From: Bacteroidota bacterium | GTDB taxonomy: Bacteria > Bacteroidota > Bacteroidia > JABDFU01 | Length of the DNA: 64,000 nucleotides | NCBI GenBank assembly: GCA_016183775.1 | Contig: JACPDY010000001.1 | Location: 2,190 to 66,189, forward strand | Direction of reading: 5' to 3' | Part shown: positions 12,469-61,385 of the stretch, in pieces | Layout: each line of letters starts with the position of its first letter | Numbering within the stretch: the stretch's first letter is position 1 | Notes under the pieces: generated by a model | What the model saw: only the letters and a program-made list of their open reading frames with translations | Database searches by the model: none | What the model was told of the DNA's origin: nothing | Position numbers and translations under genes: made by a program

Positions 12469-12631
12469 AAGGGATAAAGTTATCCAAATGGATACTTGAC
12501 AATTACGTTGGTGAATCCAACTTATTAACGCCAATTTGTGAATTGAGGGAATGTCCTCTTTCATTGGTCTCATTCGTTAGTTGAAACTATGCACTTTCAG
12601 TGCACGACTTTCAGTTTCTAAAAACATTATT

Positions 12632-26000: not shown

Positions 26001-26392
26001 GCAGTGTTCTGGCAAATCCCGGGAGTGGTACGTCACCTTATACTTATAACTGGAGCAATGGCCAAGCCACTCAAGCTGTCTCAGGTTTGTCTCAGGGAAA
26101 TTATACAGTAACGGTAACCGACAATAAGGGATGCAAAGCAACTGCTGCAACAATCATAATTTCACCCCCCGTTATTACGGGTCAATTTGCCAAAGGTACT
26201 TCTGCTTGCACGGGTTGTGGTTGCAAAGAATGGATATTGGTTAGCGCCACAGGAGGTACAAGCCCATACAGCTATTCATGGCCTGATGGATATGTGAACA
26301 GATATAAAAATCAACTTTGCCCCGGAACTTACTCGGTAAATATTAAAGACAAAAATGGATGTAGTATCAATGTTAATCTCAGCGCGCCTTGA
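23096..26392 (+). CDS. Giant secreted SBBP / PKD / SprB-repeat protein, paralog 3
   Basis: 1098 aa with the signal-like N-terminus MKTKLAFAFLLVEKLIVTSACAQ. It has SBBP-type blades (W.TYIGG..D...), a PKD domain (WQWSFGDGGASTQQNPSHIYTTTGTYTVKL), a Cys-variant repeat (VCSGSCAAVTSSAAGGAVPYTYLWN...NINPCP), a SprB repeat, and the terminal CTGCGCKEW module. Confidence 0.9.
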   Translation: MKTKLAFAFLLVEKLIVTSACAQNMDDLFMIGQASYRQDDMFNELSESEKAGIYNNIAATPIAFRKNEGQWDNRTSSNEERILYQGSSPGWNANIYFMKHKLSFGFMREKEEHGIDSITGQMRKESYEYLIWNLHFKGANPEVNITAEGKEGSRTNYLIGNDFSKHVTNVSDYRMIKYNDLYENIDLRYYSTGKNFKYDYILKPGSDISKIQMTCEGIKNVHINGEGQLEIKTTWGTLVEEMPESYQIINGGKKNIKIIYRVLNDTTFGFNATEEYNRSFPVIIDPIIYKWGTYLGSTTTNVGFGYSRDITVDSKGYVYGTSFYNLSFPTTAGVYDQTYNGASCGACPTGQDYYLGDIIVYKLKPDASALVWATYIGGSKDEWGVGIAVDEATNEVIIRGMTSSSNFPTTAGAYDNSFNGVTDAVVCKLNATAGNTLIYSTYIGGTDADETIGFNINDIGYNQSTKNVYVVDYTLSTDFPMTPGCYDPTYNGGGDAVVFVLNPGGNGNADLKYASYLGGTGLDRPFSIGYHQNYGKMAVTGITRSTDYPVTVNAHKNTFQGGLQDAFMFILNPAGSGAGDLIYSTYVGGSDNDYSQTIHVNSIGESAISGFTNSNNFSAITAGSYDPSFNTCVVSGNSNIFMVKFNPIGNVVFGTFFGDGAWSAGNGIWVTESGEVFLSGEVGDGSGGCNIPTTPCAYDNSLAGSSDQFLAKFNASGSNLLYATYIGGGRADYHASGLFYSGDCSQEVYIAGASHSFDFPVTAGVVQPVHNDPTGLLDKPVVYKFKPVITPNFTNSAGTQCNSPILFTDLSAGNCIWKAGAWLPTTWQWSFGDGGASTQQNPSHIYTTTGTYTVKLIVGCPMDSIIKTITVTGVCGMTVTATTANVCSGSCAAVTSSAAGGAVPYTYLWNTGSTAQNINPCPVSTTTYTVTITDAGGITATSTAVVTVNPVVSVTATPTNISCSGTANGSVLANPGSGTSPYTYNWSNGQATQAVSGLSQGNYTVTVTDNKGCKATAATIIISPPVITGQFAKGTSACTGCGCKEWILVSATGGTSPYSYSWPDGYVNRYKNQLCPGTYSVNIKDKNGCSINVNLSAP

Positions 26393-41017: not shown

Positions 41018-41084
41018 CGGTTTATTAATTTCGTTACATCTTTTGATCAGGGCTGCCAGTTTAATACTCACACTGCAATGATTT

Positions 41085-41120
41085 CAGGGATGACATCGCT
41101 TCCAAGCGATGTCATCCCTG
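41085..41120. terminator. Perfect 16-bp palindrome CAGGGATGACATCGCT-tcca-AGCGATGTCATCCCTG between convergent genes
   Basis: It lies between the LOG-family stop codon (41017) and the giant gene A stop codon (41125). The left arm recurs at 20079. Confidence 0.6.
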
Positions 41121-41124
41121 ATTA

Positions 41125-44100
41125 TTATGGAGCTGTCAGGCTGATGTTAACACTGCATCCGTTTTTATCCTTCACGTTTATGGAATATATTCCCGGGCAA
41201 AGTTGATTTTTATACCGGTTCGCATAGCCATCCGGCCATGTGTAGCTGTATGGGTTAGTACCTCCTGCAGCATTTACCATTATCCATTCTTTACAGCCAC
41301 AACCACTACAGCTTGCCGTACCCTTTGTAAATTGTCCGGCTAAAGGAGGTGGAGAAAGTATCGTAGCTATTGATATTGCACTGCAGCCTTTACTATCAGT
41401 TACTGTAACGGTATAATTTCCCGCGCTCAAACCTGAAACCTGGAACCCGGAACCCAATCCATTACTCCAGTTATAAGCAAAGGGTGAAGTCCCTCCTCCT
41501 GGATTTGCGAATGAGCTACCGTTTGTACCACCATTACAAGTTATGTTGGTTGGTGTTATGGTTACAGTAACAGCAGGATTAACTGTAACTACTGCTGTTG
41601 AGGAGGACGTATTACCCCCGGAGTCAGTTACAGTTATGGTGTAAATTGTGGTTGTAACAGGACATGGATTTATATTTTGTGTAGTGGCGCCATTGTTCCA
41701 CAAATAGGTATAAGGACCTGTGCCGCCTGTGCTACTTGATGTAATTGCTGCGCAGGAACCCGGACATACCGAGCTGCCGGTAGCTGTAACTGTTGGGCCA
41801 TTACAATTGGTGATAGTAATGTTCAGTGTTATTGTGCTGCTGCAGCCTGCATTCGTTACTGTATGGGTAACACTATATACCCCGGCAGTTAAAAAAGTAT
41901 AAGAGAAATTTGCGGTTGTACCGCTTACATTTGCAGGTGTTAATGGAGAAATTACCCAGCTATACGTGCCTATTGATCCTATATTGGTAAAGGTTACCGC
42001 GGCGCCCAGGCAAGCAGGAGAATTTGTAAATGCAGCAGAAACAGGACTTGTGCCTGTAATGGAATATGATCTGGTCGCAGTACACCCATTGACATCCGCT
42101 ACTGTTACCGTATAGTTGCCGGTAGCAAGGCCGGAAGCATTTTGTGTAGTAAAGCCATTGCTCCAATTATAGGTATAAGGTACTCCTGCATTTCCATTTA
42201 CCGTTACTGATGCGCTGCCACTTGTGGTACAAGTGATATTTGTGCTTGATCCTGTAAGTGACAGTGGAAATACCGGAGTAACTGTTCCTGTAACACTACA
42301 TCCGTTAGCATCTGTTACAGTAACCGTATATGGATTGATATTTAATCCGTTGGCTGTTGCTGATGCCTGGCCATTGCTCCATAAATAGGAGTAAGATGGT
42401 GTTCCGTTTGTAGGGTATACAGTTGCAGTACCACTATTATTCCCGCATGACCATTGCGTTGTAAAACCCGCAACCAGTTGCAGAGGCTGGGTGATAGTTA
42501 CAGTTTGTTTGGCTGTGCAGCCGTTTTTATCAGTTACTGTTACTGTATAGGTCCCCGCTCCAATGTTGTTTGCTACAGATGTAGTTTGTGAGTTACTCCA
42601 CAAAAAAGTATACGGAGTAGTACCTCCTGAAGGGTTTGCTGATGCAGTTCCGGTCATGCTTCCATAGCAAAGTGTATTACTTGCAGTTGTTGTTAATGTT
42701 ATTCCGCCCGATGGAACTATAGTTACTGATTGTGAGCCGCCACAACCGCCATTGTCTGTAACAGTTACTGTATAGGAACCTGCTCCCAGGCCGCTGGATG
42801 TACTGGTAGTTTGCCCGTTACTCCATATATAAGTATACGGTGCTGTGCCGCCCGTTGTACCTACTGTTGCTGTTCCGTTGGAGAAAGAGCAGGTATTGGA
42901 AGTGGGTGTAGTAACCAGTGTTAATACACTTCCTGCTCCGGTTATAGTGTAATAAACAGTATCACGATTAATTATACATGAAGCATCTTTTACTTCCGTC
43001 CAATAATTACCCGGGCAAAGTCCCGTAACAGTATTACTGTTGGTACTTGCGTTTATCGTGCTGCTGCCATTGCTCCAGGCATAACTGTAATTTGGAATAG
43101 CGCAATTTACAACCACGGTGGCACTGCCATTACAGCCACAACCAGTAACATTAACCTGGCTTTGTATATAAGCAGGTTTTTCCGGAATGAATTTTGCGAT
43201 ATATACATCATCATCTCCGTTATGTGAATTATCAAAATAAGCTCCGCCACCCGGGTTAGTTGTGGGATAAGTTGCATTGTTTACAACTCCTCCCGAAGTT
43301 GCATCCGACTCATGTCCCACGGAACTCCACTCTCCGGCAATAAATAAATTTCCATTGTTGTCTGTTGCCAATGGACAGCGAAAGTCACTTCCGTTGCCTC
43401 CAAAATGTGTAGTCCAATCCAATACCCCGGAATTAGAGAAGCGCGTTATGAAAATATCGTATGACATAAAAGGACTCGTATTTCCGCTTGACATATTGAA
43501 GCCACCTTTGTATGATGCACTATATGAACAAGAAAGAGATTTAACCGGGATATTAGTCGACGAGGTTTCAAAAGTAACATATACCCTATTGCAATTGTCT
43601 ATTGCAATATTGGAATTTGTTGAGCCAGAATATTGATTGGCTAACATTGATTCAATTCCTGTGCCGCCATAATAAGTTGCCCAAAGCAATACTCCGCTAT
43701 TGTTGAATTTCAAAATAAAAGCGTCAGATTGGCCAGCATTGGTGTTTTGAAAATATGTACCACCACCTGGATTGACAAGGCGGCCTAATGCATTTAAGTT
43801 TGTTGAAGTGGTACCCCCTGAAGCAAAAATGTTACCCGCTCTATCAATAGCTAATGAAAAACTTATACTAAAGTTTATCCCAAAGGCAGAAACTTCATTG
43901 TTGTTTCCTCCATAGTAAGTTGCCCAAAGCAATACTCCGCTATTACTGAATTTTAAAATAAATGCATCATCCAGGCCCGCATTGGTATTTTGAAAATACG
44001 CGCCACCTCCGGGATTGACCAGGCGGCCCAATACATTCAGATCCGTTGAGCTGGTCCTTCCAATAACTACAATGTTACCCATGTTGTCAACAGCAACAGA

Positions 44101-45621
44101 ACTCGCCAAGTCTCCTCCCGTACCGCCATAATAAGTACCCCATAATAAAACTCCCGCATTTGAAAACTTAACTATAAATGCATCCCTGCCTCCGCCACTC
44201 CCCTGGAAGTATGTTCCGGCATTTAGTAAATTTAAATTAGGGCCATCAGCTCCTCCAACTACATATACATTGCCACTATTATCTACTGCAACCGAAGTAG
44301 CCTTTTCCCATCCGAGGGCATTGACATTGGTATCCCCATAAGAGGTACTCCATATTAATGTTCCGCCGGAATTAAATTTCAGGATCAATGGATCATATCC
44401 ACGTATGCCGGGTTGAAAATATGCACCGCCGCCTGGATTTACCATGCGCCCCAGTGTATTTAAATCTCCTGCACAAGTCCATCCTACAACGAATACATTT
44501 CCTGTGGCATCAAAGGCAATACCATATAGCTCTGTATGACAGCTTCCGCCGTAATAAGTAGCCCATTGCATCACCCCATTATTGCTAAATTTGAGAATAA
44601 GGCCATGATAATTATATCCGACAGGGCCTACATTTTGAAAATATGCGCCGCCACCCTGATCAAGTAAAGTAAGGCCGGGACTTAAGGTGTAAGCCGCAAC
44701 ATATATATTTCCATTTACATCTGCTGAAATATCAATAGCTCCCTCATTTTGATTTGAACCATAAAATGTTGCCCATGAAAGCTGTGGATCAATGATCAAA
44801 GTCTGATGCTGCATATTAATACATCCCGGATCAATTTGATACGAAATTTCTGTTTCAAACCCTTCGTCGGTATTGTTAGGGCTGCATCTGTTAACTTTTG
44901 TTTTATTAAACCGTGTTGCAATTATCTTCCCCGTTTCCTTTACATAGCTCACAGGATTTTTTTCTGTCAATAGTCCTAAAGGAGTTTCAATTTTTATATT
45001 GCCTTGTTCATCAATTTCCAATTTGTTTTTTGAACGATAAAGCAGTCGGATTTGATTGCGGTCAGCACCCGGATGTACTACAAAATCATATTTAAATCCC
45101 GATTCATTTGTATTATACAGCACCCAGTCAACTCCGGGATAAACATCCTGAATGATTATTTTGTCGTATTCCCTGACAGTAACTCCACCATAAACATTAC
45201 CGGAGTAAAACTGTTTAAAATAAGCCGAAGCCCCGTCTTTTATTATCTTCTCACTTTTAATAATTCCTCCCTTAAGATCCATATCCACGCGGACTCTGTT
45301 TGTATTTAAGGTCAAGAGATCACTTGCGGCTCTATTCGTTTCCCTTTCTCCTTCAGCTTCTTCTTTCTCAAATAACATAAATGTTAATCCTTTTTCGGTA
45401 ACATATAGGTCAATATTAGGGGCTTCGGCTTTAAACAATACAAAAGGTATCGACTTGCCGTTGATGTCAGTCATCTGCCCTTTGTTTTCCAGGAATTTTA
45501 CAGGTTGGTTGTGGAGCCATTGCTGCGCCTGCTTTTTGAGTTCAGTTTCGTTCTCTGTTTTTGCCGCAAACAAGGATAGGCCTGTGAGAAAAAAAGAGAG
45601 GTATGTGAAATTTTTTTTCAT
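41125..45621 (-). CDS. Giant secreted SBBP / SprB-repeat protein, tandem copy A (last of three)
   Basis: The ATG at 45619-45621 gives MKKNFTYLSFFLTGLSLFAAKTENE..., so the track ORF is extended by 8 codons. It has the N-domain FLENKGQMTDINGKSIPFVLF, about 10 SBBP-type blades, about 8 SprB-type repeats, and the terminal CSGCGCKEW module. Confidence 0.9.
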   Translation of the reverse strand: MKKNFTYLSFFLTGLSLFAAKTENETELKKQAQQWLHNQPVKFLENKGQMTDINGKSIPFVLFKAEAPNIDLYVTEKGLTFMLFEKEEAEGERETNRAASDLLTLNTNRVRVDMDLKGGIIKSEKIIKDGASAYFKQFYSGNVYGGVTVREYDKIIIQDVYPGVDWVLYNTNESGFKYDFVVHPGADRNQIRLLYRSKNKLEIDEQGNIKIETPLGLLTEKNPVSYVKETGKIIATRFNKTKVNRCSPNNTDEGFETEISYQIDPGCINMQHQTLIIDPQLSWATFYGSNQNEGAIDISADVNGNIYVAAYTLSPGLTLLDQGGGAYFQNVGPVGYNYHGLILKFSNNGVMQWATYYGGSCHTELYGIAFDATGNVFVVGWTCAGDLNTLGRMVNPGGGAYFQPGIRGYDPLILKFNSGGTLIWSTSYGDTNVNALGWEKATSVAVDNSGNVYVVGGADGPNLNLLNAGTYFQGSGGGRDAFIVKFSNAGVLLWGTYYGGTGGDLASSVAVDNMGNIVVIGRTSSTDLNVLGRLVNPGGGAYFQNTNAGLDDAFILKFSNSGVLLWATYYGGNNNEVSAFGINFSISFSLAIDRAGNIFASGGTTSTNLNALGRLVNPGGGTYFQNTNAGQSDAFILKFNNSGVLLWATYYGGTGIESMLANQYSGSTNSNIAIDNCNRVYVTFETSSTNIPVKSLSCSYSASYKGGFNMSSGNTSPFMSYDIFITRFSNSGVLDWTTHFGGNGSDFRCPLATDNNGNLFIAGEWSSVGHESDATSGGVVNNATYPTTNPGGGAYFDNSHNGDDDVYIAKFIPEKPAYIQSQVNVTGCGCNGSATVVVNCAIPNYSYAWSNGSSTINASTNSNTVTGLCPGNYWTEVKDASCIINRDTVYYTITGAGSVLTLVTTPTSNTCSFSNGTATVGTTGGTAPYTYIWSNGQTTSTSSGLGAGSYTVTVTDNGGCGGSQSVTIVPSGGITLTTTASNTLCYGSMTGTASANPSGGTTPYTFLWSNSQTTSVANNIGAGTYTVTVTDKNGCTAKQTVTITQPLQLVAGFTTQWSCGNNSGTATVYPTNGTPSYSYLWSNGQASATANGLNINPYTVTVTDANGCSVTGTVTPVFPLSLTGSSTNITCTTSGSASVTVNGNAGVPYTYNWSNGFTTQNASGLATGNYTVTVADVNGCTATRSYSITGTSPVSAAFTNSPACLGAAVTFTNIGSIGTYSWVISPLTPANVSGTTANFSYTFLTAGVYSVTHTVTNAGCSSTITLNITITNCNGPTVTATGSSVCPGSCAAITSSSTGGTGPYTYLWNNGATTQNINPCPVTTTIYTITVTDSGGNTSSSTAVVTVNPAVTVTITPTNITCNGGTNGSSFANPGGGTSPFAYNWSNGLGSGFQVSGLSAGNYTVTVTDSKGCSAISIATILSPPPLAGQFTKGTASCSGCGCKEWIMVNAAGGTNPYSYTWPDGYANRYKNQLCPGIYSINVKDKNGCSVNISLTAP
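41430..41457. repeat. In-CDS heptamer array AACCTGA AACCTGG AACCCGG AACCCAA
   Basis: Four units. This is the complement of the GGGTTCC/GGTTTCA family, and it encodes ..GSGFQVSGLS.. in the penultimate SprB repeat of gene A. It could be partly explained by Gly/Ser codons. Confidence 0.5.
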
Positions 45622-45641
45622 GGGTATAGTATTGTCCTTAA

Positions 45642-48600
45642 TCACGGTGCTGTAAGATTAACGTTAACACTGCAGCCATTTTTATCTTTTACATTTATAG
45701 AATATGTCCCAGGGCAAAGTTGATTTTTATACCGGTTCACATATCCATCCGGCCAGGTGTAGCTATAGGGCTCTATACCCCCTGTTGCATTTATCATTAT
45801 CCATTCTTTACAACCACAACCAATACAGTTGGCCGTGCCTTTGGTAAATAATACTGAAAGGGGAGGAGGAGAAGTTATCGCTGTAGTTGAAGTTGCGGTG
45901 CAACCTTTGCTGTCTGTCAACGTGATGGTATAATTTCCAGCACTCAAACCTGAAACAGTTGAACCTGAAACTAAATTACTCCAGCTGTATGTAAACCCGG
46001 GCGTACCACTGGTTGGATTTGCATTCGCGTTGCCGTTTGTACCACCATTGCAGCTTATGTTGGTTGCAGTTGTGTTAACAGTTACTGCAGGGTTAACTGT
46101 TACTACTGCTGTTGAAGTGGATGTATTTCCACCGGTATCTTTTATTGTTACCGTGTAGGTAGTAGTAACTAAAGGGCATGGTGCCGGTGTATTGTTTTGT
46201 GTGGTCACACCGTTGCTCCATAGGTAGGTATATGGAGGGGCTCCTCCTACAGCACTCGCTGTTATTGTTGCGCACACGCCCGGACAAACAGATGCGCCTG
46301 TGGTAGTTATAGCTGGGCTATTGCAGTTTGTAACATTTATATATTGGGTAACTGCGTTTGTGCAGCCGGCATTAGTTACAGTATGAGTAACGCTGTAAGT
46401 TCCGGCGGTTAAAAAAGTGGTGCAGAAGTTTGTTGTTGTTCCGCTAACATTCACAGGAGCTTCGATAGTCCATGAATGAGTGCCTGCAGAACCGGTATGG
46501 GTAAAACAGGATGGTTGATTTAAACAAACAGGTGGGCTGGTAAAGGTTGCAGAAGCCGCGCTTGATCCTGTTATGGTAACGGAACGGGTAACAGTACAGC
46601 CATTCCCATCGGTTACTGTAACTGTATATGTTCCCGCCGCAAGGTTTTTATTCAGGCAGGGGTTGCCACAATTTCCTCCTACTGTTGAACCGTTGCTCCA
46701 ACTGTAAGTATAAGAGTATAATGTGGGACCTGAAGCAGTTACCCCTGCGTAACTGTATCCGGTACAGGCAATGTTTTCGCTACTGGTACTAACAGACATT
46801 GGTTCATAAATTGATGTGAGTTCAGATGAGGCACATCCTTTGGAGTCGGTAATGGTAACAGAATAGGCTCCCAAACCTAAACCGGTTGCCGTTGGTGATG
46901 TGGAGCCGGTACTCCATGTGTACAAATAAGGAGGAAATCCACCTGATGCGCTTGCTGTGGCTGTACCCAAATTTGCCGCACAAACCGGTTGGGTAATTTT
47001 CGGAAGAAGCGGAGTGGGCTGACTTAGTACAATGGTGGATACTGAGACACAGGAACCCGTATTTACTGTTACAGTATATGTTCCGGCTTGTAAGTTTGTT
47101 GCCTGATTTGAGACCGATGAAGTAATGGCCTTAGTGCCATTGCTCCAGCTATACGTATAAGGTCCGGCGGGCCCGTTGCTGACTGTTACTATTGCGCCTC
47201 CTGTTGCGCCGAAACATTTGATACTTGGGTTTTCAACAATGGAGGCAGACATACTGCATCCGCAATTAATATCGCTGAGAGAAAACCTGGCCGTATCCTT
47301 ATTTCCGCAGGCGGAAGTTACTTCAACCCAGTAATTACCCGCACACAAGCCGGATATGCTGTCGGAGGTAACTGCGGTATTTAAAACTGTGCGTCCGGTA
47401 CTCCATATATAGCTTATTCCTGGCATATCGCATTGGGCGGTTACCTTTACTTTTCCGTTACAAGCATTGCATCCAATAGGATTATGTTGTTCGCTTTCCA
47501 GCGTCGTGGAAGATTCCGGTTTAAAACCAAGTTTGGCAATATACATATCATCCCTGCCACCATTGAATGAATTATTGAAATAGGTTCCGACACCGGCATT
47601 TGCAAGCGGATAAGTAGTGTTGCTTACTGCTGCGGAATTGAATTCAGTCCACTCTCCGCCCACAAACAAATTTCCGACATTGTCTAACGTTATCGGACTT
47701 CGAAAATCATTTCCATTGCCGCCAAAATAGGTACCCCATTGTAAAACTCCTGTATTGGAAAAACGAGCTAAGTAAATATCATTACTCCCGTTAGAAGTGC
47801 CGTCAAAATAAGCGCCTGAAAGAAATTGCACAGGAATGTCGGATGACCCTGTTTCAAACGACACAAAGAGGTGCCCGCATTCATCTGTTTGTATATTGTT
47901 ATGAGTTAAGAGTTCTGCGGGCCCCCGCGCAAGAATTGAAGGCAGTAGGCCAAGTGAGTATTCTGCCGAACTTCCCCCGTAATAAGTTGCCCAAAGACGC
48001 ATTCCGTTGTTGTCGAATTTAAGGATAAATGCATCGGAGTAGCCACTTAATGTTGATTTATAGTAGGAGTTTCCGCCTGGACTAAGGGTAGGCAGATCGG
48101 TTGATTTGGTTGAACCTGTTATAAAAACATTACCGCTACAATCGGTGGCAATAGAATAGCCATAATCATTTCCCTTTCCGCCATAAAAAGTCGCCCACAA
48201 GCGCACCCCATTATTACTGAATTTTAAAATGATAACATCTCCATTAAATACACCGGCGTAATTAGATCCTCCTCCATAACTTTGGGAATATGTTCCTGCC
48301 GGGGTGTATATAGGGAAAGACGATGAATTTAGGGAGGGGTTTTCAAAAACTCCGCTTACTCCTGTTATAAATACATTTCCAAAATTATCAACAACAATTG
48401 AATGCCCTGCCTCATCTTCATTTCCGCCATAACAAGTTGCCCATAGGAGTATACCTGTGTTGTTAAATTTTAGAATGAATAAATCCATCATACCAGAACT
48501 GTTTGGTACCTGAAAATAGGCCCCTCCTCCCGGATTATAAGTTGGAAATTGTGGGGGATTTCCTACTGTCATCATTGAGTTTGTCCATCCCGTTACAAAT

Positions 48601-50081
48601 ACATTTCCCATGTTGTCTGTTACGATAGAATTTCCCCAGTCAGTATTCCCACCACCATATAAAGTGGCCCAAAGGCGAATTCCGGAATTACTGAATTTAA
48701 GGATAAAAACATCGGTTTTATTAGAAAAACCATTGCTGAAATATGCACCACCAGCGGGATTGTACGTGGGGAATGGAGCGACATTGTCAACCCGTTCTGA
48801 GCGCCCTGTTACAAAAATATTTCCCATATTGTCCGTTGCCATAGACTGTGGCATTTCAAACCCGTTTCCTCCATAAAAAGTAGACCAAAGAAGAACACTT
48901 CCAGAAGTAAATTTCATTATAACTAAGTCAAATCCTTGAAATCCTCCCGCATACACTCCGTCAAAATAGGCTCCGCCGCCGGGGTTTAATGTGGGGAAAC
49001 TATTTTGTCCGGCATTCGGTCCGCTAGCCGTGTAAGCACAAATAAATAGATTGCCGGCTGCATCAGTGGCAACATCCATGATACCTCCATCTTGAGCACC
49101 TGCGCCATCTAGAAGAGTACTCCAAATAAGCTGTGGGTCGATGATTAAAGTAGATGTGAGATATGAGATGTGAGATAAGAGATGAAACGAAACAGAAGTT
49201 TCGTACCCTTCATCAACCTGCGTTGGTCGGCAAGAGTTTACATTTGTTTTTACAAATTTAGTTCTGATGCTCTCCCCTGTTTCTTTAATGTAACTAACCG
49301 GCGCGTTTTCTGTTAATGTGCCGTAAGGCGTTTTTATTTCAATGTTTCCCTGTTCATCAAACCGAAGTTTTTTTCCTGAGCGGTAAAGCAATTTAATGTT
49401 CGCTGGAACAGCACCGGGATGTACTTCAAAATCATATTTAAATCCTTTGTTATTGCTGTTATAAAATATCCAGTCGATGCCTGGATATACATTTTTAATA
49501 ATTATTTTGGAGTATGTGTGTACATCTGTCACTCCATTGGGACAATGTCCCAGAAAATATTGGTTAAACATTAAAGACTTGCCTTCCGTAACAATGTTTT
49601 CTTTTTTAATGCTGGCACCCTCCAGGTCCATGTCAATCCGGCTCCAGTTAAATGATTTAAATTCTTCTTCCCCTGTACTGAGCGTAGTCAAAGCATCTTC
49701 TTCTATTGATCCGTACGGTTCGCCTTGTTTATTTTTTTCTTTATTATTGCCTCGGTGTAATCCTTCCGGTTCTTTTTCTTCCTCATCTTTTGTCACACTG
49801 AGCCCCGTCGAAGCGTCTTTTATATCTTCCATGAAACAATAAGTAAGTCCTTTTTCTGTAACAAAGAGGTTCATGCCTGGTGCGGTTACCTGGTATAAAA
49901 CAAAGGGTACAGGTTTTCCCTGCATGTCTGTCATCTGTCCTTTGTTCTCTGTAAATTGTACGGGTTGTTCTTTCAGCCATTGCTGTGCCTGCTTTTTGAG
50001 TTCAGCTTCGTTCTCTGTTTTTGCTGCAAACAATGAAAGGCCTGCGAGAAAAAAAAGTAGGTATGTGAAAAGTTTTTTCAT
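45642..50081 (-). CDS. Giant secreted SBBP / SprB-repeat protein, tandem copy B
   Basis: 1479 aa with the signal MKKLFTYLLFFLAGLSLFAAKTENE and the same architecture as A and C. A 20-nt spacer separates it from gene A. Confidence 0.9.
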   Translation of the reverse strand: MKKLFTYLLFFLAGLSLFAAKTENEAELKKQAQQWLKEQPVQFTENKGQMTDMQGKPVPFVLYQVTAPGMNLFVTEKGLTYCFMEDIKDASTGLSVTKDEEEKEPEGLHRGNNKEKNKQGEPYGSIEEDALTTLSTGEEEFKSFNWSRIDMDLEGASIKKENIVTEGKSLMFNQYFLGHCPNGVTDVHTYSKIIIKNVYPGIDWIFYNSNNKGFKYDFEVHPGAVPANIKLLYRSGKKLRFDEQGNIEIKTPYGTLTENAPVSYIKETGESIRTKFVKTNVNSCRPTQVDEGYETSVSFHLLSHISYLTSTLIIDPQLIWSTLLDGAGAQDGGIMDVATDAAGNLFICAYTASGPNAGQNSFPTLNPGGGAYFDGVYAGGFQGFDLVIMKFTSGSVLLWSTFYGGNGFEMPQSMATDNMGNIFVTGRSERVDNVAPFPTYNPAGGAYFSNGFSNKTDVFILKFSNSGIRLWATLYGGGNTDWGNSIVTDNMGNVFVTGWTNSMMTVGNPPQFPTYNPGGGAYFQVPNSSGMMDLFILKFNNTGILLWATCYGGNEDEAGHSIVVDNFGNVFITGVSGVFENPSLNSSSFPIYTPAGTYSQSYGGGSNYAGVFNGDVIILKFSNNGVRLWATFYGGKGNDYGYSIATDCSGNVFITGSTKSTDLPTLSPGGNSYYKSTLSGYSDAFILKFDNNGMRLWATYYGGSSAEYSLGLLPSILARGPAELLTHNNIQTDECGHLFVSFETGSSDIPVQFLSGAYFDGTSNGSNDIYLARFSNTGVLQWGTYFGGNGNDFRSPITLDNVGNLFVGGEWTEFNSAAVSNTTYPLANAGVGTYFNNSFNGGRDDMYIAKLGFKPESSTTLESEQHNPIGCNACNGKVKVTAQCDMPGISYIWSTGRTVLNTAVTSDSISGLCAGNYWVEVTSACGNKDTARFSLSDINCGCSMSASIVENPSIKCFGATGGAIVTVSNGPAGPYTYSWSNGTKAITSSVSNQATNLQAGTYTVTVNTGSCVSVSTIVLSQPTPLLPKITQPVCAANLGTATASASGGFPPYLYTWSTGSTSPTATGLGLGAYSVTITDSKGCASSELTSIYEPMSVSTSSENIACTGYSYAGVTASGPTLYSYTYSWSNGSTVGGNCGNPCLNKNLAAGTYTVTVTDGNGCTVTRSVTITGSSAASATFTSPPVCLNQPSCFTHTGSAGTHSWTIEAPVNVSGTTTNFCTTFLTAGTYSVTHTVTNAGCTNAVTQYINVTNCNSPAITTTGASVCPGVCATITASAVGGAPPYTYLWSNGVTTQNNTPAPCPLVTTTYTVTIKDTGGNTSTSTAVVTVNPAVTVNTTATNISCNGGTNGNANANPTSGTPGFTYSWSNLVSGSTVSGLSAGNYTITLTDSKGCTATSTTAITSPPPLSVLFTKGTANCIGCGCKEWIMINATGGIEPYSYTWPDGYVNRYKNQLCPGTYSINVKDKNGCSVNVNLTAP
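49151..49185. repeat. In-CDS 5 x 7-nt array, TGAGATN family
   Basis: GTAGATG TGAGATA TGAGATG TGAGATA AGAGATG. It is read on the - strand as ..LLSHISYLTST.. in the linker before the first propeller blade of gene B. Confidence 0.85.
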
Positions 50082-50103
50082 GGGTATAGCATTGTCTTAT
50101 TAA

Positions 50104-53100
50104 TCAGGGTGCTGTAAGATTAACATTCACACTGCATCCATTCTTATCCTTAATGTTAATTGTATATGTTCCCGGACAAAGCTGATTTTTATACCTGTTC
50201 ACATATCCATCCGGCCATGTGTAGCTGTATGGATTTGTACCTCCTGCAGCGTTAATAATTATCCATTCTTTGCATCCACAACCACTGCAGCTTGCTGTTC
50301 CTTTTGTAAATTGTCCTGACAAGGGTGGAGGAGAAGTTATAGTGGCTGTTGATGTTGCTGTACAACCTTTGCTATCTGTTACTGTAACTGTGTAGATCTG
50401 AGATGTGAGATTTGAGATCTGAGATGTTGTTCCGCCATTACTCCAGGTGTAAATAAATCCTGGCGTACCATTGTTTGGATTTGCATTCGCGCTGCCGTTT
50501 GTGCTACCGTTGCAGTTTATGTTGGTTACAGTTGTGCTTAAGCTAACAGAAGGATTAACATTGACTACTGCGGTTGTAGTAGATGTATTTCCGCCGGAGT
50601 CGGTTACGGTTACAGTATATATTGTAGTTGCAGCAGGGCAGGGGTTTATATTTTGTGTAGTTGCGCCGTTATTCCACAAATAGGTATAAGGGCCGGTGCC
50701 GCCTGTACTACTTGATGTTATTGCTGCACAGGAGCCCGGACATACAGAGGTGCCGGTAGCTGTAACCGTTGGGCCATTACAATTAGTTCCATTTATATAT
50801 TGGGTTACTGTATTGGTGCATCCTGCGTTTGAAACTGTATGGGTAACACTATAGGTACCTGCGGTTAAAAAGGTATAACAAAAATTTGTTGTTGAGCCGC
50901 TTACACTCACAGGTGGTCCAATGGACCACGTATGTGTGCCTGCAGAACCCGTATGTGTAAAACAAGTGGCCTGATTTATGCAGGCTGGCGGGGCAGTAAA
51001 AGTTGCTGAAGCTGCACTTGATCCTGTAATGGTAACCGAACGGGTAACTGTACATTCATTACCATCGGTTACTGTAACTGTATATGTTCCCGCCGCGAGG
51101 TTTTTATTCAGGCAGGGGTTGCCACAATTTCCTCCTACTGTAGAGCCATTACTCCAGCTGTAAGTATAAGGGGATGTGCCAAAATTAGTGGTTATGCCTG
51201 CATAACTGTACCCGCTACAGGTAATATTTCCGCTGCTAGGACCCACAAGCATTGGTTCCTTAATTGATGTGAGTTCAGATGAAGTGCATCCTTTGGAGTC
51301 GGTAATGGTAACTGTATATGTTCCCAGATTTAATCCAGTTGCTGCTGGTGATGTGGAGCCGGTACTCCATGAGTACAAATAAGGAGGGGATCCACCTGTG
51401 GCGCTTGCTGTGGCTGTACCTAAATTTGCCGCGCAAACCGGCTGGGTAATTTTAGGGATAACAGGAAGTGGTTGACTTAGCGTTACGGAGGATACGGAGA
51501 CACAGGAACCGGTAATTACTCTTACAGTATATGTTCCGGCTGGCAAGTTTGTTGCCTGATTTAAGGTCGAAGAAGTAATGGCGTTAGTGCCATTACTCCA
51601 ATTATAGGTATAAGGGCCGCCGGGCCCGTTGCTTACTGTTACTATCGCGCCTCCTGTTGTGCCTATACATTTGATACCGGGGCTTTCAATAATGGAGGCA
51701 GACATACTGCATCCGCAATTAACATTGCTAAGTGAAAACCAGGCTGTGTCTTTTTCCCCGCAGGCGGAAGTTACTTCAACCCAGTAATTACCCGCGCATA
51801 AACCGGATATACTATCGGATGCCGCCGTGATGTTCAAAACAGTTCGTCCGGTACTCCATACATAACTTAAGCCGGCCATATCGCATTTGGCGGTTACTTT
51901 TGCTTTTCCGTTGCAGGCGCTGCATCCCACAGGATTATCCTGCCGGCTTTCCAGCTTATTTATTTCCGGCTCAAAACCAAGTTTGGCAATATACATGTCA
52001 TCCCTGCCGCCATTGAATGAATTATCATAATAAGCCCCTCCACCCGGAGTTGTAAGCGGATAGGTAGCATTGTTTATTGATGGGATATTATTAATAGTCC
52101 ACTCTCCGGCAACGAACAAATTTCCGAAATCATCTAACGCTATTGGGCTTCGAAAATCATTCCCATCGCCGCCGAAATAGGTACCCCATTGTAAAACTCC
52201 TGTATTGGAAAAACGGGCCAGGTAAATATCGTTATACCCGTTAAAAGTTCCGTCAAAATAGGCTCCTGAAAGAAATTGCACAGGAATGTCGGATGACCCT
52301 GTTTCAAACGACACAAAGAGATGCCCGCATTCATCCGTTTGTATATTGCTCCAGGTTGGTATAGCCGGTACAACACCATCATCGTATTCATTCATAGCAC
52401 CCCCATAATAAGTTGCCCAAAGCCTTTTTCCGGCGTTGTCGAATTTAAGGATAAACGCATCGTTGCTGCCACTTAATATTGATTTATAGTAGGAATTTCC
52501 GCCGGTATTAAGGGTAGGTAGATCGGTTGATTTAGTTGAACCTGTTACAAAAACATTACCGCTGCAATCGGTGGCTATGGAATTGCCAACATCAGAATCA
52601 GAACCGCCATAAAAAGTTGCCCAAAGCTGAACGCCACTGCTGCTGAATTTTAAAATAAAAGCGTCTCCACCATACAATCCATAACACATGCAAACAGTTG
52701 AGAATGGGCCCCCGCCATAAGCCTGAAAGTATGCCCCTGCCGGGCCCGGATTGGTGGGGAAATTATTTGATGGCGTTTTAGTTGCACCTGTTTTTCCTGT
52801 TACAAATACATTTCCAATTCCATCCACAGCTATGGAGTTGCCGGTATCTTCCGCAGAACCGCCATAAAAGGTTGCCCATTGCCTTATTCCCGAATTTGTG
52901 AATTTCAGAATAAACGCATCTGTTCCATTGGCTGCGTTTGCTCCCTGGAAGTATGCTCCTCCCAAGGCGTTTTGAGTTGGGAAAGTAGTTTGGGGAGGGG
53001 TATTATAATGAGAGATTGTGTACCCTGTCACAAACACATTTCCCGCATTATCCGTAATTATAGAATTTCCTCGGTCATCTCCACCACCTCCGTAATAGGT

Positions 53101-54429
53101 GGCCCACAGACGAACTCCGGCATTATTGAATTTCAGAATAAAGACGTCGGAACCATTCATAGTCCCGGAACCTCCTGCAAATGCCCCCTGGAAGTATGCT
53201 CCCGCACCTGGATTTTGAGTGGGAAAATTCGCTGTTGATGAATTATAAATGGGGTCATATCCGGATCCCGTATACCCCGTTACAAAAACATTTCCGGCAT
53301 TGTCAACAGTTATGGAATTGGCGAGATCTTTTTCGCCGCCACCATAATAAGTTGACCAAAGGCAAACACCTGATGGATTAAATTTTAAAATCACTGCATC
53401 TAAATATGCGAAAAAAGCCCCCCCTCCGTACACTCCCTGAAAATAAGCGCCGTTTCCGGGATTTATTGTAGGAAAAGTATTCTGAGTCACGTTGCCACCT
53501 GTATAACCACAAATAAATAGATTGCCAGCTGCATCAGTAGCAATATCCATGAAACCTCCATCCTGACTGGTCCAACTGGGAGAACTTGCGCCATCGTAAA
53601 ATGTTGACCAAACAAGTTGAGGGTCGATGATTAGGGTTCCGGGTTCAAGGTTCCGGGTTCCGTGTTCTAAATTAAATACAACTTGTGTTTCGTACCCTTC
53701 ATCAACCTGTGTGGGGCGGCAAGTAGTTACTTTTGTTTTTACAAATTTAGTTCTGATGTTCTCACCGGTTTCTTTAATGTAACTTATCGGCGCGTTTTCG
53801 GTTAATGTGCCGTATGGTGTTTGTATTTGTATATTGCCTTCTTGGTCAAAATGAAGGCGCTTGCCGGACCGGTAAAGTAATTTAATACTACCGGGATCAG
53901 CCCCGGGATGTACAGCAAAATCATATTTAAATCCTTTTTCGCCGCTGTTGTAAAATACCCAGTCAATACCGGGATAGATTTCTTTAATAGTAATTTTTGT
54001 ATAACTATGCACATCCAATACCCCATCTGGACAACCTGCCTTGCCGGCAGGCAGGTGACCCAGGTAGTACTGGTTAAAAGAATTTGATCTGCCTTCGGTT
54101 ATAATATTCGATTTTTTAATAGAAGCTCCTGCAAGGCCCATGTCAATGCGGCTCCAGTTAAATGGTTTAAATTCGCCTTCCTCCTCCGTAGGTACGGGTA
54201 ATCCCGTTTTTTCTTCGCGTTCGTTTTCCATGCTGAGCGCCGTCGAAGCATCTTTTACTTCTTCCATAAAGCAATACGTAAGTCCCTTTTCAGTAATAAA
54301 AAGATTCACGCCCGGTGCTCCGACCTGGAAAAGAACAAATGGTACAGGTTTGCCATTCATATCTGTCATAATAGTGGAGAGCATTAATATTCCATATTTG
54401 CAGGAAATATTTAAAAATCTATGGTTCAT
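50104..54429 (-). CDS. Giant SBBP / SprB-repeat protein, tandem copy C, 5'-truncated (no signal peptide; possible silent or pseudogene copy)
   Basis: The reading frame is intact, but similarity to copy B begins exactly at the Met codon at 54367-54369 (MTDMNGKPVPFVLFQ...). The 20 upstream codons (MNHRFLNISCKYGILMLSTI) are unrelated. The signal peptide and the AAKTENE...QAQQWL...F.ENKGQ segment are missing. Confidence 0.75.
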   Translation of the reverse strand: MNHRFLNISCKYGILMLSTIMTDMNGKPVPFVLFQVGAPGVNLFITEKGLTYCFMEEVKDASTALSMENEREEKTGLPVPTEEEGEFKPFNWSRIDMGLAGASIKKSNIITEGRSNSFNQYYLGHLPAGKAGCPDGVLDVHSYTKITIKEIYPGIDWVFYNSGEKGFKYDFAVHPGADPGSIKLLYRSGKRLHFDQEGNIQIQTPYGTLTENAPISYIKETGENIRTKFVKTKVTTCRPTQVDEGYETQVVFNLEHGTRNLEPGTLIIDPQLVWSTFYDGASSPSWTSQDGGFMDIATDAAGNLFICGYTGGNVTQNTFPTINPGNGAYFQGVYGGGAFFAYLDAVILKFNPSGVCLWSTYYGGGEKDLANSITVDNAGNVFVTGYTGSGYDPIYNSSTANFPTQNPGAGAYFQGAFAGGSGTMNGSDVFILKFNNAGVRLWATYYGGGGDDRGNSIITDNAGNVFVTGYTISHYNTPPQTTFPTQNALGGAYFQGANAANGTDAFILKFTNSGIRQWATFYGGSAEDTGNSIAVDGIGNVFVTGKTGATKTPSNNFPTNPGPAGAYFQAYGGGPFSTVCMCYGLYGGDAFILKFSSSGVQLWATFYGGSDSDVGNSIATDCSGNVFVTGSTKSTDLPTLNTGGNSYYKSILSGSNDAFILKFDNAGKRLWATYYGGAMNEYDDGVVPAIPTWSNIQTDECGHLFVSFETGSSDIPVQFLSGAYFDGTFNGYNDIYLARFSNTGVLQWGTYFGGDGNDFRSPIALDDFGNLFVAGEWTINNIPSINNATYPLTTPGGGAYYDNSFNGGRDDMYIAKLGFEPEINKLESRQDNPVGCSACNGKAKVTAKCDMAGLSYVWSTGRTVLNITAASDSISGLCAGNYWVEVTSACGEKDTAWFSLSNVNCGCSMSASIIESPGIKCIGTTGGAIVTVSNGPGGPYTYNWSNGTNAITSSTLNQATNLPAGTYTVRVITGSCVSVSSVTLSQPLPVIPKITQPVCAANLGTATASATGGSPPYLYSWSTGSTSPAATGLNLGTYTVTITDSKGCTSSELTSIKEPMLVGPSSGNITCSGYSYAGITTNFGTSPYTYSWSNGSTVGGNCGNPCLNKNLAAGTYTVTVTDGNECTVTRSVTITGSSAASATFTAPPACINQATCFTHTGSAGTHTWSIGPPVSVSGSTTNFCYTFLTAGTYSVTHTVSNAGCTNTVTQYINGTNCNGPTVTATGTSVCPGSCAAITSSSTGGTGPYTYLWNNGATTQNINPCPAATTIYTVTVTDSGGNTSTTTAVVNVNPSVSLSTTVTNINCNGSTNGSANANPNNGTPGFIYTWSNGGTTSQISNLTSQIYTVTVTDSKGCTATSTATITSPPPLSGQFTKGTASCSGCGCKEWIIINAAGGTNPYSYTWPDGYVNRYKNQLCPGTYTINIKDKNGCSVNVNLTAP
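50392..50426. repeat. In-CDS 5 x 7-nt array, TGAGATN family
   Basis: GTAGATC TGAGATG TGAGATT TGAGATC TGAGATG. It encodes ..TSQISNLTSQIY.. in the penultimate SprB repeat of gene C. Confidence 0.85.
53634..53668. repeat. In-CDS 5 x 7-nt array, GGGTTCM family
   Basis: GGGTTCC GGGTTCA AGGTTCC GGGTTCC GTGTTCT. It encodes ..EHGTRNLEPGT.. at the site homologous to 49151-49185. Confidence 0.85.
54033..54057. repeat. In-CDS copy of the AACCTGCCT..CCGGCAGGCAGGT palindrome (in-frame 21-nt insertion)
   Basis: AACCTGCCTTGCCGGCAGGCAGGTG matches 21071-21095 at 22 of 25 positions. It adds LPAGKAG inside the otherwise conserved GHCP.G motif. Confidence 0.85.
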
Positions 54430-54467
54430 GCCCTTTTGATTTTACTTCGTAAATTTCATAGTATATT

Positions 54468-54686
54468 TTACCACATCCTAAACAAATCTTCGTACATCAT
54501 TGAATGTGGCCGGTTATAAATATCTTCCGGCACTTTCATTTTTGATTTCTTAAAGGCGGATAATGTTTTCGATGAAGTCCGGGGCTTAACTTTTCTTCCA
54601 TTTAATTTTTTTTCTTTTTTCATTTGCACATTTGTTGTTTTACGAATAAAGTTATGGTTTTCTTGCATGACTGATATTATATACAA
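54468..54686 (-). CDS. Small basic hypothetical protein
   Basis: 72-aa ORF, lysine-rich (KKEKKLNGRKVKPRTSSKTLSAFKKSKMK). It has no recognisable family, several possible internal starts, and sits between the protease and giant copy C. Confidence 0.3.
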   Translation of the reverse strand: MYIISVMQENHNFIRKTTNVQMKKEKKLNGRKVKPRTSSKTLSAFKKSKMKVPEDIYNRPHSMMYEDLFRMW

Positions 54687-54710
54687 ATGGTTAAATCCAT
54701 TTATATCTGG

Positions 54711-57700
54711 CTAATATATTATAACCTTTTTTACGATTTCATTTTTTGTATTTTTTAATCTAACCTGATAAATCCCACTGCCGGATGTTGCAATATTTAT
54801 TTGTTTGGAATAAATGCCGCTGAAGTCAGGTAATAATTCGCAGTAAACTAATTGTCCAAGCATGTTTTTTATTTCAATGGTATAGTTTGATAGAGCCGTA
54901 GCATGAACGTATATCGCAAAATTACCATCTGTAGGGTTTGGATAAATGTTCAGAAGAGGTATGTCAGAAAAGGAATCAATCCCTACAGTTGACATTATTA
55001 CGGGTGATGATGGTGCGGAAGAGCAGCCATTTGTAGTCACAACAACCGTATAACTTCCGTTCTGCGCCACAGTATGCGTTTGGTTGGTAGCCCCCGGTAT
55101 AGAATTTCCATTTAAATACCATTGATTTCCGGTAGCGGAACTTGATGTCAACACACTTCCCGCCTGCGAGATCACCGGTGTGGCAGGGATCGCGTTGATG
55201 GTCATTGTAACACCTGTACTTGTGGCTGTTACCGGGCTCGCGCAAGCAGCATTCGATGTGAGCACACAGGTAACAACCTGTCCATTGGTCAACGTACTTG
55301 TTGTAAATGTTGCGCTATTGGTGCCCGCATTAACTCCATTTATTTTCCACTGGTAAGCAGGTGTGGTTCCGCCATTGGTTGGCGCAGCGGTAAATGTTAG
55401 CGAAGTGCCTGCACAGGTCGGATTAGTACCTGTTGTTAAAGAAGCAGCGACATCAGGTGTTACAGATGAATTAATTGTCATTGTTACACCTGTACTTGTA
55501 GCAGTGGCCGGATTTGCGCAGATAGCATTAGAAGTTAGTACACAGGTTACAACTTGTCCATTTGTAAGAGTACTTGATGTAAATGTTGTGCTATTGGTTC
55601 CTGCATCAACTCCGTTTACTTTCCATTGATAAGCAGGCGTTATTCCACCGTTTGTTGGTGTTGCGGTAAATGTTACCAACGCACCGGCACATGCCGGGTT
55701 ATTACCCAATGTTATAGCAGATGAAACAGCAGGTGTTACAGATGGGTTGATTGTCATTGTTATACTGTTGGAGGTTGCAGGATTGCCCGTAACACCGGGA
55801 AGGTTCGAGGTCATTTCGCATGTAACTGCCTGTCCGTTTGTTAAAGTTGCAGTTGTATACGTTGGACTGTTTGTGCCTACATTGACTCCATTTACTTTCC
55901 ATTGGTAAACAGGTGTTGTTCCACCGTTTGAAGGGGTAGCTGTAAAGGTAACAGAAGATCCTGAACACGCAGGATTTACTCCTGTTGTTTGTACTACTGA
56001 AACAGCAGCGGCCATATTTGTTCCGGCAATAATTATATCATCCAGATATAAATTGTTGCCTGCACCTCCCTTATTCATAAAAATAAATATAGCGGTTGAA
56101 CTCGCTGCTACTGATGGTGGCAGGAGGTAGGCTTCATTGCGCCACTGTGTTGTCCCTGAAGGAATAAACGGAGATGTTGTGGTTCCTGCTACTGTAGCCA
56201 GCGTGCTGCCCCATTTTTTATATAATAGCCCATATGTTTTGCCGCAATCGGTGGAAACCAATACCAGCAGTGTATCTGCCGGATAACCTGTTTGGGGTTG
56301 ATATGCAACCTGAAATGATATGGCAGGATTGCTTGCTGTGGTAAGGTCAAGTACGGGGGTACTCATGTAATCTGTTGTCCCATAAAAAGGGTCATAATAG
56401 TTTAGCATGAGGGCACTGCGACTGCCTGAATATTTTGCAACAGTCGTTGGAGCCCATGTTAATTCCCCATCTGGATTGCTCAACCCCCAATCGGGTGGGG
56501 GGAAGGTTCCTTCAAAGCCTTCTGTAAAAGGCAAGGCAGCACCTGTTTGCACCACATTAATGGTTGATTTTAATGTGTCATTGCTTATAAAACCGTCAAC
56601 TCCACCGTTAGGGGCGGAAGTGTAAGCTGTAAACGTATGTTTCCCATATGCAAATGTTGTAGCCGGTAAAGTAACAGCAGTGGCAGAACCCGAAGCCAGG
56701 CTGCCTGTCCAGTTATGCACGGAGGGTGAATTATTATCCACTTTGTAATTTATTTTTAAAGAAGAGAGTGCGGAAGTTCCAACATTTCTGATCACCACCT
56801 GCATCGCCAGAGATGTAGTACATGTAGTGCCGGAACTAAGTCCGATCGGAGATGCATTTAGTGAAAACACAGTTCCTTGTGCACACTGCAGGGCAGCCAA
56901 CGCGTCAATTCGTCCTGTTCCCATCAATCCGGCATACGAGGGATTAAGCGCATCTATATTTGTTGTAGTAGACTTGAGACAATTAATAGCCTGCTCCTGC
57001 GTTAGGTTTGGATTTACCGAAAGTATCAGCCCTAGTAAACCGCTTACTGCCGGTGCTGCCATGGAAGTTCCGGTATAGCTGGTGTACGAATTTGTGGGTA
57101 TTGTGCTGTAAATACCAGTGCCGGGTGCTGAAACATCTACCCAGCTGTTATACGTTGAAGAGGATTCTTTAATATCGGAGCTGTTTGTAGCAGTAACACA
57201 CACTACATTATTCATTGCTCCCGGATATACTTTATTATTGATGCCGCTATTTCCGGCTACAGCCACAACAATAGAACCCCTGTTATACGCCCAGTCAATA
57301 ATGGCCTGCCTGGTTGTTGAATAAGAAGCGGAGCCAAAAGAACAATTAATTACTCTCGCGTTGTTTAATGCTGCGTAATAAATACCGGGTGTTGCACTGG
57401 TCATTACATCGGAAGCATCAGGTGCTGCTTTTACGCACATTAATTTTATGTTTGAACCTATTGAGGCAATTCCAATCCCGTTATTGCTTTTTGCCGAAAC
57501 GATTCCGGCCACGTGTGTACCATGACTAAAGCTTGTATTAGGAGGGTTAGGGTCATTGTTGCCATCAGCGAGGTCATACCCGTTAATATCGTCAATATAT
57601 CCGTTGTTATCATTGTCAATGCCGTCACCGGCTATCTCTCCCGGATTTACCCAGATATTCGGCTGCAGATCGGGGTGTGTGGTTTGTATGGCATTATCAA

Positions 57701-61191: not shown

Positions 61192-61385
61192 TGATCTTAC
61201 CCCTCCTTATTAACACACCGCTGTTTGTAAGTTAGAAACTGTATTCGTTTCCTAACCTTCATTTTAAAATAGTTTTGTAAGGATTTGTTTCAACAATGGT
61301 TGGACCGTTTGTTTGCGTGAATAAAAGATGCATTTAAATTAATGAAATTGTGTCAAAAATATTTTTAACGCGAATTTTTAAAAAC

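Follow-up and report, generated by a model that had tools for sequence, protein, structure and literature searches.

Six giant proteins encoded in a 64,000-nucleotide stretch of DNA from a Bacteroidota bacterium (NCBI GenBank assembly GCA_016183775.1, contig JACPDY010000001.1, positions 2,190 to 66,189; the whole stretch is called the window below) end in the same 68-residue, cysteine-rich domain, here called the tail. The tail is read as a lineage-specific C-terminal export or anchoring domain, which would replace the canonical C-terminal domain (CTD) of type IX secretion system (T9SS) cargo and would act most simply through the T9SS itself. On the sequence evidence a probability of about one half is given to this reading. 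It is favoured because the tail is strictly terminal, is present in many copies, is constrained above the level of its cargo, follows several kinds of head, interchanges with the known CTDs and is restricted to one lineage.

Conservation and distribution of the tail

The six giants (g1 to g6; Table 1) share a common architecture of DUF7948, an SBBP beta-propeller and then PKD and SprB repeats. Translation of the six terminal intervals confirmed the observation, made in an earlier note on this DNA, that each protein ends in a 68-aa module with a stop codon immediately behind it. Among these six tails 43/68 columns are invariant, including five cysteines (C8, C11, C13, C45 and C59) and not the six that had been proposed. 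The motifs CGCKEW, NRYKN and KDKNGCS are the same in all six, as had been noted, but PYSYTWPDGY is not, since the tail of g3 reads PYSYSWPDGY. Mean pairwise amino-acid identity of the giants is 0.80 over the last 68 columns and approximately 0.40 over most of their length. A tblastn search of the window with one tail recovered the six tails at 75-100% identity (118-146 bits), whereas the internal SprB repeats all fell at or below 44% identity (≤42 bits). This bimodal distribution implies that the window holds exactly six tails and that these form a separate class. The unit common to different architectures starts approximately 4-6 residues before the module boundary of Table 1, at 'L.GQ[FY]TKGT', and in g4 a conserved linker, 'PPPLAGQ', lengthens the module to approximately position 41361.

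Beyond the window, one genome for each of 185,579 GTDB species was scanned with the patterns DKNGCS[VI]N and CxxCGCKEW. The tail subfamily was found in only two of these species representatives, both Bacteroidia: MAG-335 (JAEUTS01), with at least 45 tail loci, and SJ452 (JADLGT01), with at least 21. In 65/65 specific matches from these two genomes the stop codon lies right behind the final proline, and the stops used are TGA (38), TAA (25) and TAG (2); a 66th match, the fragment L067, ends one residue short of its stop. Stop-codon read-through or recoding was ruled out, since three stop types are used and second in-frame stops lie close behind. Other Bacteroidota yielded five generic matches (33-43% identity), and these occupy internal positions. 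Protein databases added 16 full-length proteins with a terminal tail, from a third metagenome-assembled genome (MAG), HYU69 (NCBI MBI2269361 and others), and from one JGI metagenome. The carriers from HYU69 are named by NCBI only as 'SBBP repeat-containing protein'. Seven database fragments also carry the tail, all of them terminally; they were the yield of a word-index search that missed at least 16 full-length carriers found later, and the database counts are therefore lower bounds. A metagenome scan with an unspecific pattern gave, among the matches listed, at least one further clear tail (L072), again terminal.

In total, 86 distinct full-length tails were collected. Every one of them is terminal, and the subfamily was never seen internally. 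Across the 86, 28 positions are at least 95% conserved, charged and polar ones among them, and the consensus is f.KGta.C..CGCKEW.m..a.gGt.PY.Y.WpdGy..RYkN.LCPG.Y..n..DkNGCs.n.....P. Tails are 60-87% identical between genomes, compared with 39-46% identity to g4 for the passengers (the protein upstream of the tail) of the 16 database carriers. As judged from these scans, the tail is restricted to a narrow lineage of uncultured Bacteroidia, in which it has a high copy number. In a homologue search with UvrA, all hits were from MAGs of Bacteroidota or Bacteroidia (best 94%), which shows the lineage as uncultured and places it to the level of class.

MAG contigs very often end within approximately 200 codons upstream of a tail (L001, L010, L016, L019, L023, L036, L044, L045, L048, L050, L051, L053, L058, L059, L062-L064 and L066). 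The conserved C-terminal cassette probably fragments the assemblies, so that the number of tails counted in each MAG is a minimum and many entries in the databases are incomplete.

The passengers were surveyed in ten complete carriers from MAG-335 and SJ452 and in 34 partial carriers, and at least three architectures bear the tail. Among the complete carriers there are seven DUF7948 proteins, six with SBBP repeats; three Kelch propellers followed by PKD and SprB; and one protein with an unassigned N-terminus plus PKD/Ig_7. SBBP repeats are present in 21/34 partial carriers. The domain preceding the tail is SprB, or is PKD-like in L034, L039 and L060. By reading, the N-termini of nearly all complete carriers look like Sec signal peptides; g6 has none. 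The start region of g6 (window positions 54300-54720, minus strand) also lacks the first 50 or so residues present in g4 and g5, and no upstream frame encodes them; this copy may have lost its 5' end or may not be exported. In g4, the listed GTG start overlaps the g5 stop. The likelier start is an ATG at 45621, from which translation gives MKKNFTYLSFF..., in parallel with the N-terminus of g5; it would leave approximately 20 nt between the two genes.

Synonymous and non-synonymous differences (proportions pS and pN) were counted by the Nei-Gojobori method, region by region, on a codon alignment of the six giants. Values of pS are saturated throughout, at 0.69 in the tail and 0.69-0.75 elsewhere, whereas pN is 0.11 in the tail compared with 0.29 in the penultimate SprB domain, 0.31, and 0.42 in the N-terminal region. 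The conservation of the tail is protein-level purifying selection, and recent duplication as the reason for the likeness of the tails is excluded by the saturated synonymous sites. The earlier note had reported that the tail is conserved beyond the rest of the protein at both amino-acid and nucleotide level. The first part holds; the higher nucleotide identity (0.73-0.83 in the tail, 0.43-0.56 elsewhere) is a by-product of amino-acid constraint. That raised nucleotide identity, together with the frequent contig breaks just upstream of tails, could suggest that gene conversion or concerted evolution, or an element acting at the DNA or RNA level (for recombination, or as an RNA signal), keeps the 3' ends alike. 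Such an explanation is very improbable and is refuted by pS, which in the tail stands at the saturated level of the remaining gene, with only non-synonymous change suppressed.

An SprB-type domain in the place of a T9SS signal

The view of the module as a specialised SprB-type repeat with cysteines added is borne out by profile comparison. Pfam SprB (PF13573) matches the six tails alone at 17-23 bits over profile positions 17-35, below the gathering score of 28; the remaining Pfam matches are weak and scattered, and no NCBIfam model matches the tails alone at E≤10. Alignment of the tail with the adjacent SprB domain by hhalign gives 97.8% (E 1e-12). Of 1.84 billion representative proteins searched with a profile of the six tails, 42,433 matched. 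The top 150 of these are giants built of SprB repeats, each of which has 22-87 stretches that match most of the profile. Swamped as it was by generic SprB giants, this search informs on the fold family and not on the distribution of the subfamily. An AlphaFold2 model of the tail only (28-sequence alignment) is a six-strand beta domain with a pLDDT of 80.9. In Foldseek searches of PDB, this model and a two-domain model found generic Ig, PKD, intimin and phage-decoration folds, among which T9SS CTD structures were not prominent, and the tail-only model had no match at E≤0.001. The best PDB match of the two-domain model (by fold, to Ig repeats), and also the best by sequence, is the Aureispira grappling-hook protein GhpA (PDB 9flw, 9flp), which ranks 12th for the tail-only model (E 0.063). 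The SprB profile homology and the fold matches identify the tail, at the level of prediction, as an SprB-type Ig-like beta-sandwich domain and not as a divergent form of the type A or B CTD. It is, on this evidence, a discrete domain of 68-72 aa that arose from an SprB-type repeat.

With SprB repeats such as those of Flavobacterium SprB and GhpA, the tail shares the core C...GG..PY.Y.W......L..G.Y.[VI].[VI].D.NGC. Whereas generic SprB repeats occur internally, in tandem and with little conservation, members of the tail subfamily occur once per protein, invariably as the last domain, and are 60-100% identical. In addition, the tail has CxxCGCKEW, WPDGY.NRYKN.LCPG and a terminal ...P-stop, and five cysteines where SprB repeats have two or four. 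The earlier note had held that internal homologues without positional preference would speak against a terminal signal. Generic fold homologues are indeed internal repeats, but the specific subfamily (CxxCGCKEW ... RYKN.LCPG ... DKNGC ... P-stop) never is, and the objection therefore does not apply to the subfamily. Since four-cysteine SprB repeats (C..GC...LC.G...NGC) exist in other proteins, C8 with C59, and C45 with C11 or C13, may form two disulfides, leaving one cysteine unique to the tail. A parity test for one free cysteine found an even number of cysteines outside the tail in 6/6 window proteins but in 20/32 overall, which is the chance level. In another organism (metagenome Ga0206857_1043), an SprB giant has a tail-like end repeat, CKDTIW...ICSG...DKNGC (L073:3001-3159, 43% identity), directly before a canonical type A CTD, an arrangement that may resemble the ancestral state behind the terminal tail.

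Kinship with the adjacent SprB repeats would also be seen if the tail were simply the last, capping repeat of a recently expanded paralogue family, kept alike by ancestry and fold constraint and lacking a separate function. Most carriers are SBBP paralogues, among the complete (7/10) as among the partial ones, and the conservation of these paralogues climbs gradually across the last 400 or so residues, falling off upstream of the tail without a sharp edge. Nevertheless, pN in the tail is three to four times below that of neighbouring repeats in spite of saturated synonymous sites, Kelch-type and other proteins with differing preceding domains also carry the tail, and the tails are better conserved across genomes than their passengers. 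Tandem Ig domains, moreover, normally need no cap. A mere capping repeat is accordingly considered improbable.

The S8 protease encoded at 54711-58220 has a canonical type A CTD (PF18962, 46.7 bits; TIGR04183, 43.1 bits), as had been pointed out, and this indicates that the genome encodes predicted T9SS cargo. The giants differ. As the earlier note had stated, they show neither type of pattern: none of the full-length proteins reaches the threshold of the type A or type B CTD models, and the sole type A-model match in a giant is internal (g5 residues 984-1018, 17 bits against a cutoff of 23). The type A and type B models, both proposed there as a check on the six tails, give no hit to them at E≤10. 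Alignment by hhalign of the tail with the type A CTD profile (26 sequences) gives 0.8% and with the type B CTD profile (40 sequences) 0.3%, compared with 93% for type A against type B as a positive control.

For an assessment of positional equivalence, the query was the N-terminal 800 aa of g4, which comprise passenger sequence alone. Among the best 120 homologues, 26 end in PF18962 (type A), 40 in PF13585 (type B) and 16 in the cysteine-rich tail, in the last case at the exact C-terminus; none combines two of the three, and the rest are short or partial. These mutually exclusive ends suggest that the same passenger family 'chooses' type A, type B or the tail. The operational marks of a C-terminal sorting domain were thus found for the tail, namely terminal position, many copies, several passengers and exchange with PF18962/PF13585, although its passengers are all adhesin-like.

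In comparison with the type A CTD (PF18962/TIGR04183), the tail has the same terminal place on homologous passengers, the CTD being approximately 70-80 aa, an Ig-like beta-sandwich and present in many copies per genome. The type A CTD of PorZ has been solved (PDB 5M11; PMC10202324), and the tail model belongs to the same fold class. The tail differs in being cysteine-rich and in having no motif match. One shared partner, PorV, serves the type A CTD (PMC12618676); a shared partner for the tail is only presumed. The type B CTD (PF13585/TIGR04131) is the usual end of SprB-repeat and SBBP proteins and resembles the tail in its position on homologous DUF7948+SBBP(+SprB) passengers, in size class and, for the tail, in a cargo that is adhesin-like only. 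It has no sequence or profile similarity to the tail. Type B substrates are often linked to PorP/SprF-like shuttle genes (PMC12618676), whereas tail genes have no adjacent gene of this kind. T9SS signals fall into the unrelated-looking classes A, B and C, and the type C CTD (ChiA-type, cl41395) provides a precedent for signals beyond A and B (PMC10202324).

The six tails were also read directly for tripartite features. They end in ...KDKNGCSVNVNLTAP-stop (e.g. ...NVNLTAP), with no hydrophobic stretch and no Arg/Lys cluster, and no NCBIfam model matches them. Signals of the MYXO-CTERM class are short and have a transmembrane helix and a basic tail. Tripartite signals (LPXTG, PEP-CTERM, MYXO-CTERM and GlyGly-CTERM) differ from the tail, which is modelled as a folded 68-aa beta domain. 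The likeness to cysteine-containing members (MYXO-CTERM and relatives; bioRxiv 10.1101/2023.06.07.544157) lies in the C-terminal position, invariant cysteines, many copies per genome and restriction to a lineage.

Export tag or functional end domain

The suggestion in the earlier note that the tail signals sorting, anchoring or maturation is strengthened by the 86 terminal tails, the dozens of copies per genome, the three or more architectures and the exclusivity with type A and B CTDs; its function is a prediction from sequence. According to the proposed course of events, uncultured Bacteroidia of one narrow lineage would have turned an SprB-type repeat into a module reserved for the C-terminus. 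It would be shared by a large set of Sec-exported proteins, tens in each genome, in which a beta-propeller head is joined to an Ig stalk. On all these propeller-headed giants the tail would be the tag for export and/or anchoring at the surface; a single partner would recognise it, and it would stand in for the type A or B CTD of their homologues. The recognising structure would be the T9SS or a surface anchor. The invariant polar residues K3, K14, E15, R39, N42, D55 and N57 may form the partner interface, and the extra cysteine cluster (CxxCGC plus C45) may stabilise the domain or mediate attachment. A bolder version, possible but tentative, is that the tail constitutes a fourth T9SS class, non-homologous to A, B and C and recruited from an SprB stalk repeat, in which CxxCGC/C45 would be captured covalently (disulfide- or thiol-dependent) by a dedicated surface anchor.

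Several observations weigh against an export or anchoring role. The tail has no similarity to type A or B CTDs, in family scans or by hhalign, or to any NCBIfam model. For type C the evidence consists only of that NCBIfam result at E≤10, the ChiA sequence not having been compared directly. Clustering of the open reading frames (ORFs; ≥120 aa) that lie up to 3 kb downstream of approximately 60 tails revealed no recurrent PorP/SprF-like or other candidate partner gene, and none lies beside g1-g6. All the passengers found resemble adhesins, having a propeller and an Ig stalk, with no enzyme among them, and the neighbouring S8 protease uses type A, which argues that the tail is not a general secretion signal. 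Moreover, a conserved terminal ligand-binding or oligomerisation domain would yield the same sequence statistics.

This last point leads to the main alternative, considered rather unlikely, in which the tail is a functional end domain, either a tip that binds a common ligand or metal or a site of oligomerisation or disulfide cross-linking, for instance through the fifth cysteine or a CGC redox motif, with export achieved by other means. The odd number of invariant cysteines, one more than in four-cysteine SprB repeats, is consistent with such a role, as are the invariant charged and polar residues, the uniformly adhesin-like passengers and the dissimilarity to any known sorting domain. The prediction of even cysteine numbers outside the tail failed, however, with 20/32. 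Homologous passengers also carry a T9SS CTD at exactly the position of the tail, tail proteins have no other recognisable outer-membrane export signal, and in such proteins it is usually the variable propeller head that binds ligand.

Gene neighbourhood and significance

Only two families recur in the clustering of downstream ORFs. The first comprises further giants in tandem arrays (37 ORFs, a few of which are split fragments of one gene). The second, with 19 ORFs from 18 loci, is a protein of approximately 520 aa encoded on the opposite strand, and the two RusR-like proteins of Table 1 belong to it. The RusR-like proteins form a cytoplasmic family of approximately 500-520 aa with 22-33% mutual identity and no signal peptide, and score 144-150 bits against the BT2802 (RusR) model, for which the cutoff is 550. 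RusR is a candidate transcriptional activator (bioRxiv 10.1101/574913). In other genomes, RusR-like genes lie beside tail-bearing giants at 17 loci: L001, L008, L010-L012, L015, L016, L019, L023, L031, L033, L044, L048, L049, L051, L055 and L063. The actual layout is a divergent pair, with the RusR-like gene pointing one way and the giant the other, and suggests that each giant gene, or cluster of such genes, has a dedicated regulator of its own.

Table 1. Giants, tails and associated features in the window (all positions are window positions)
Feature	Position	Strand	Remarks
g1	699..3698	+	999 aa; signal peptide, DUF7948, SBBP propeller, SprB repeats, tail
g2	5453..9514	+	1353 aa; DUF7948, SBBP, PKD, SprB repeats, tail
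g3	23096..26392	+	1098 aa; DUF7948, SBBP, PKD, SprB, tail
g4	41125..45645	-	1506 aa as listed; DUF7948, SBBP, six SprB repeats, PKD, tail
g5	45642..50081	-	1479 aa; DUF7948, SBBP, SprB repeats, tail
g6	50104..54429	-	1441 aa; g5-like architecture; signal peptide not found in any upstream frame
Cys-rich C-terminal module of g1	3492..3695	+	Translation, alignment, tblastn
Cys-rich C-terminal module of g2	9308..9511	+	Translation, alignment, tblastn
Cys-rich C-terminal module of g3	26186..26389	+	Translation, alignment, tblastn
Cys-rich C-terminal module of g4	41128..41331	-	68 codons, stop at 41125-41127; translation, alignment, tblastn, AlphaFold2 models
Cys-rich C-terminal module of g5	45645..45848	-	Translation, alignment, tblastn
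Cys-rich C-terminal module of g6	50107..50310	-	Translation, alignment, tblastn
Canonical T9SS type A CTD of S8 protease	54717..54947	-	Residues 1092-1168 of gene 54711-58220
RusR-like protein (BT2802 family, below threshold)	3767..5323	-	518 aa; no signal peptide; just after g1, divergent from g2
Second RusR-like paralogue	21349..22854	-	501 aa; divergent from g3

The genes for the S8 protease, g6, g5 and g4 form a single co-directional block (41125-58220, minus strand). The protease also has a choice-of-anchor J domain. Right behind the g4 stop lies a perfect GC-containing inverted repeat (CAGGGATGACATCGCTT...AAGCGATGTCATCCCTG, approximately 41084-41120, minus strand), which looks like a terminator of the block. 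Divergent from it runs a TPR-histidine kinase gene (58644-60542, plus strand), which is adjoined by an ORF of 218 aa (60535-61191, plus strand), which may encode a candidate response regulator. Elsewhere in the window, a gene convergent with g2 (9523-12573, minus strand) encodes a 1016-aa protein in which both the N- and the C-terminal domain of glycoside hydrolase family 3 are fused to a beta-lactamase-fold domain. A 447-aa protein (61350-62693, plus strand) has matches to T9SS PorG (37 bits, cutoff 130), to DUF6089 and to PagL-type outer-membrane beta-barrels, all of them weak and below threshold.

The fold family of the tail is known, but no Pfam or NCBIfam model covers its strictly terminal, cysteine-rich subfamily. 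This subfamily is likewise unnamed in NCBI annotation and absent from the T9SS literature surveyed, including the review PMC10202324. Recognition of T9SS cargo in genomes now rests almost entirely on type A and B (rarely C) CTD models. If the canonical CTD has been swapped for an SprB-derived end domain, a large protein family would be invisible to predictions of T9SS cargo, and would represent a natural experiment to learn which features are recognised by the translocon or its shuttles. Were the tail a fourth T9SS class, T9SS signals could evolve anew from the Ig domains of cargo. As an anchoring or cross-linking domain, it would instead define how 20-45 or more propeller-headed surface proteins are mounted on the cell in a lineage of uncultured Bacteroidia, where many of the giant genes have their own putative RusR-like regulator. 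The module is small (68-72 aa) and sharply bounded, and is readily testable by reporter fusion in a tractable T9SS host.

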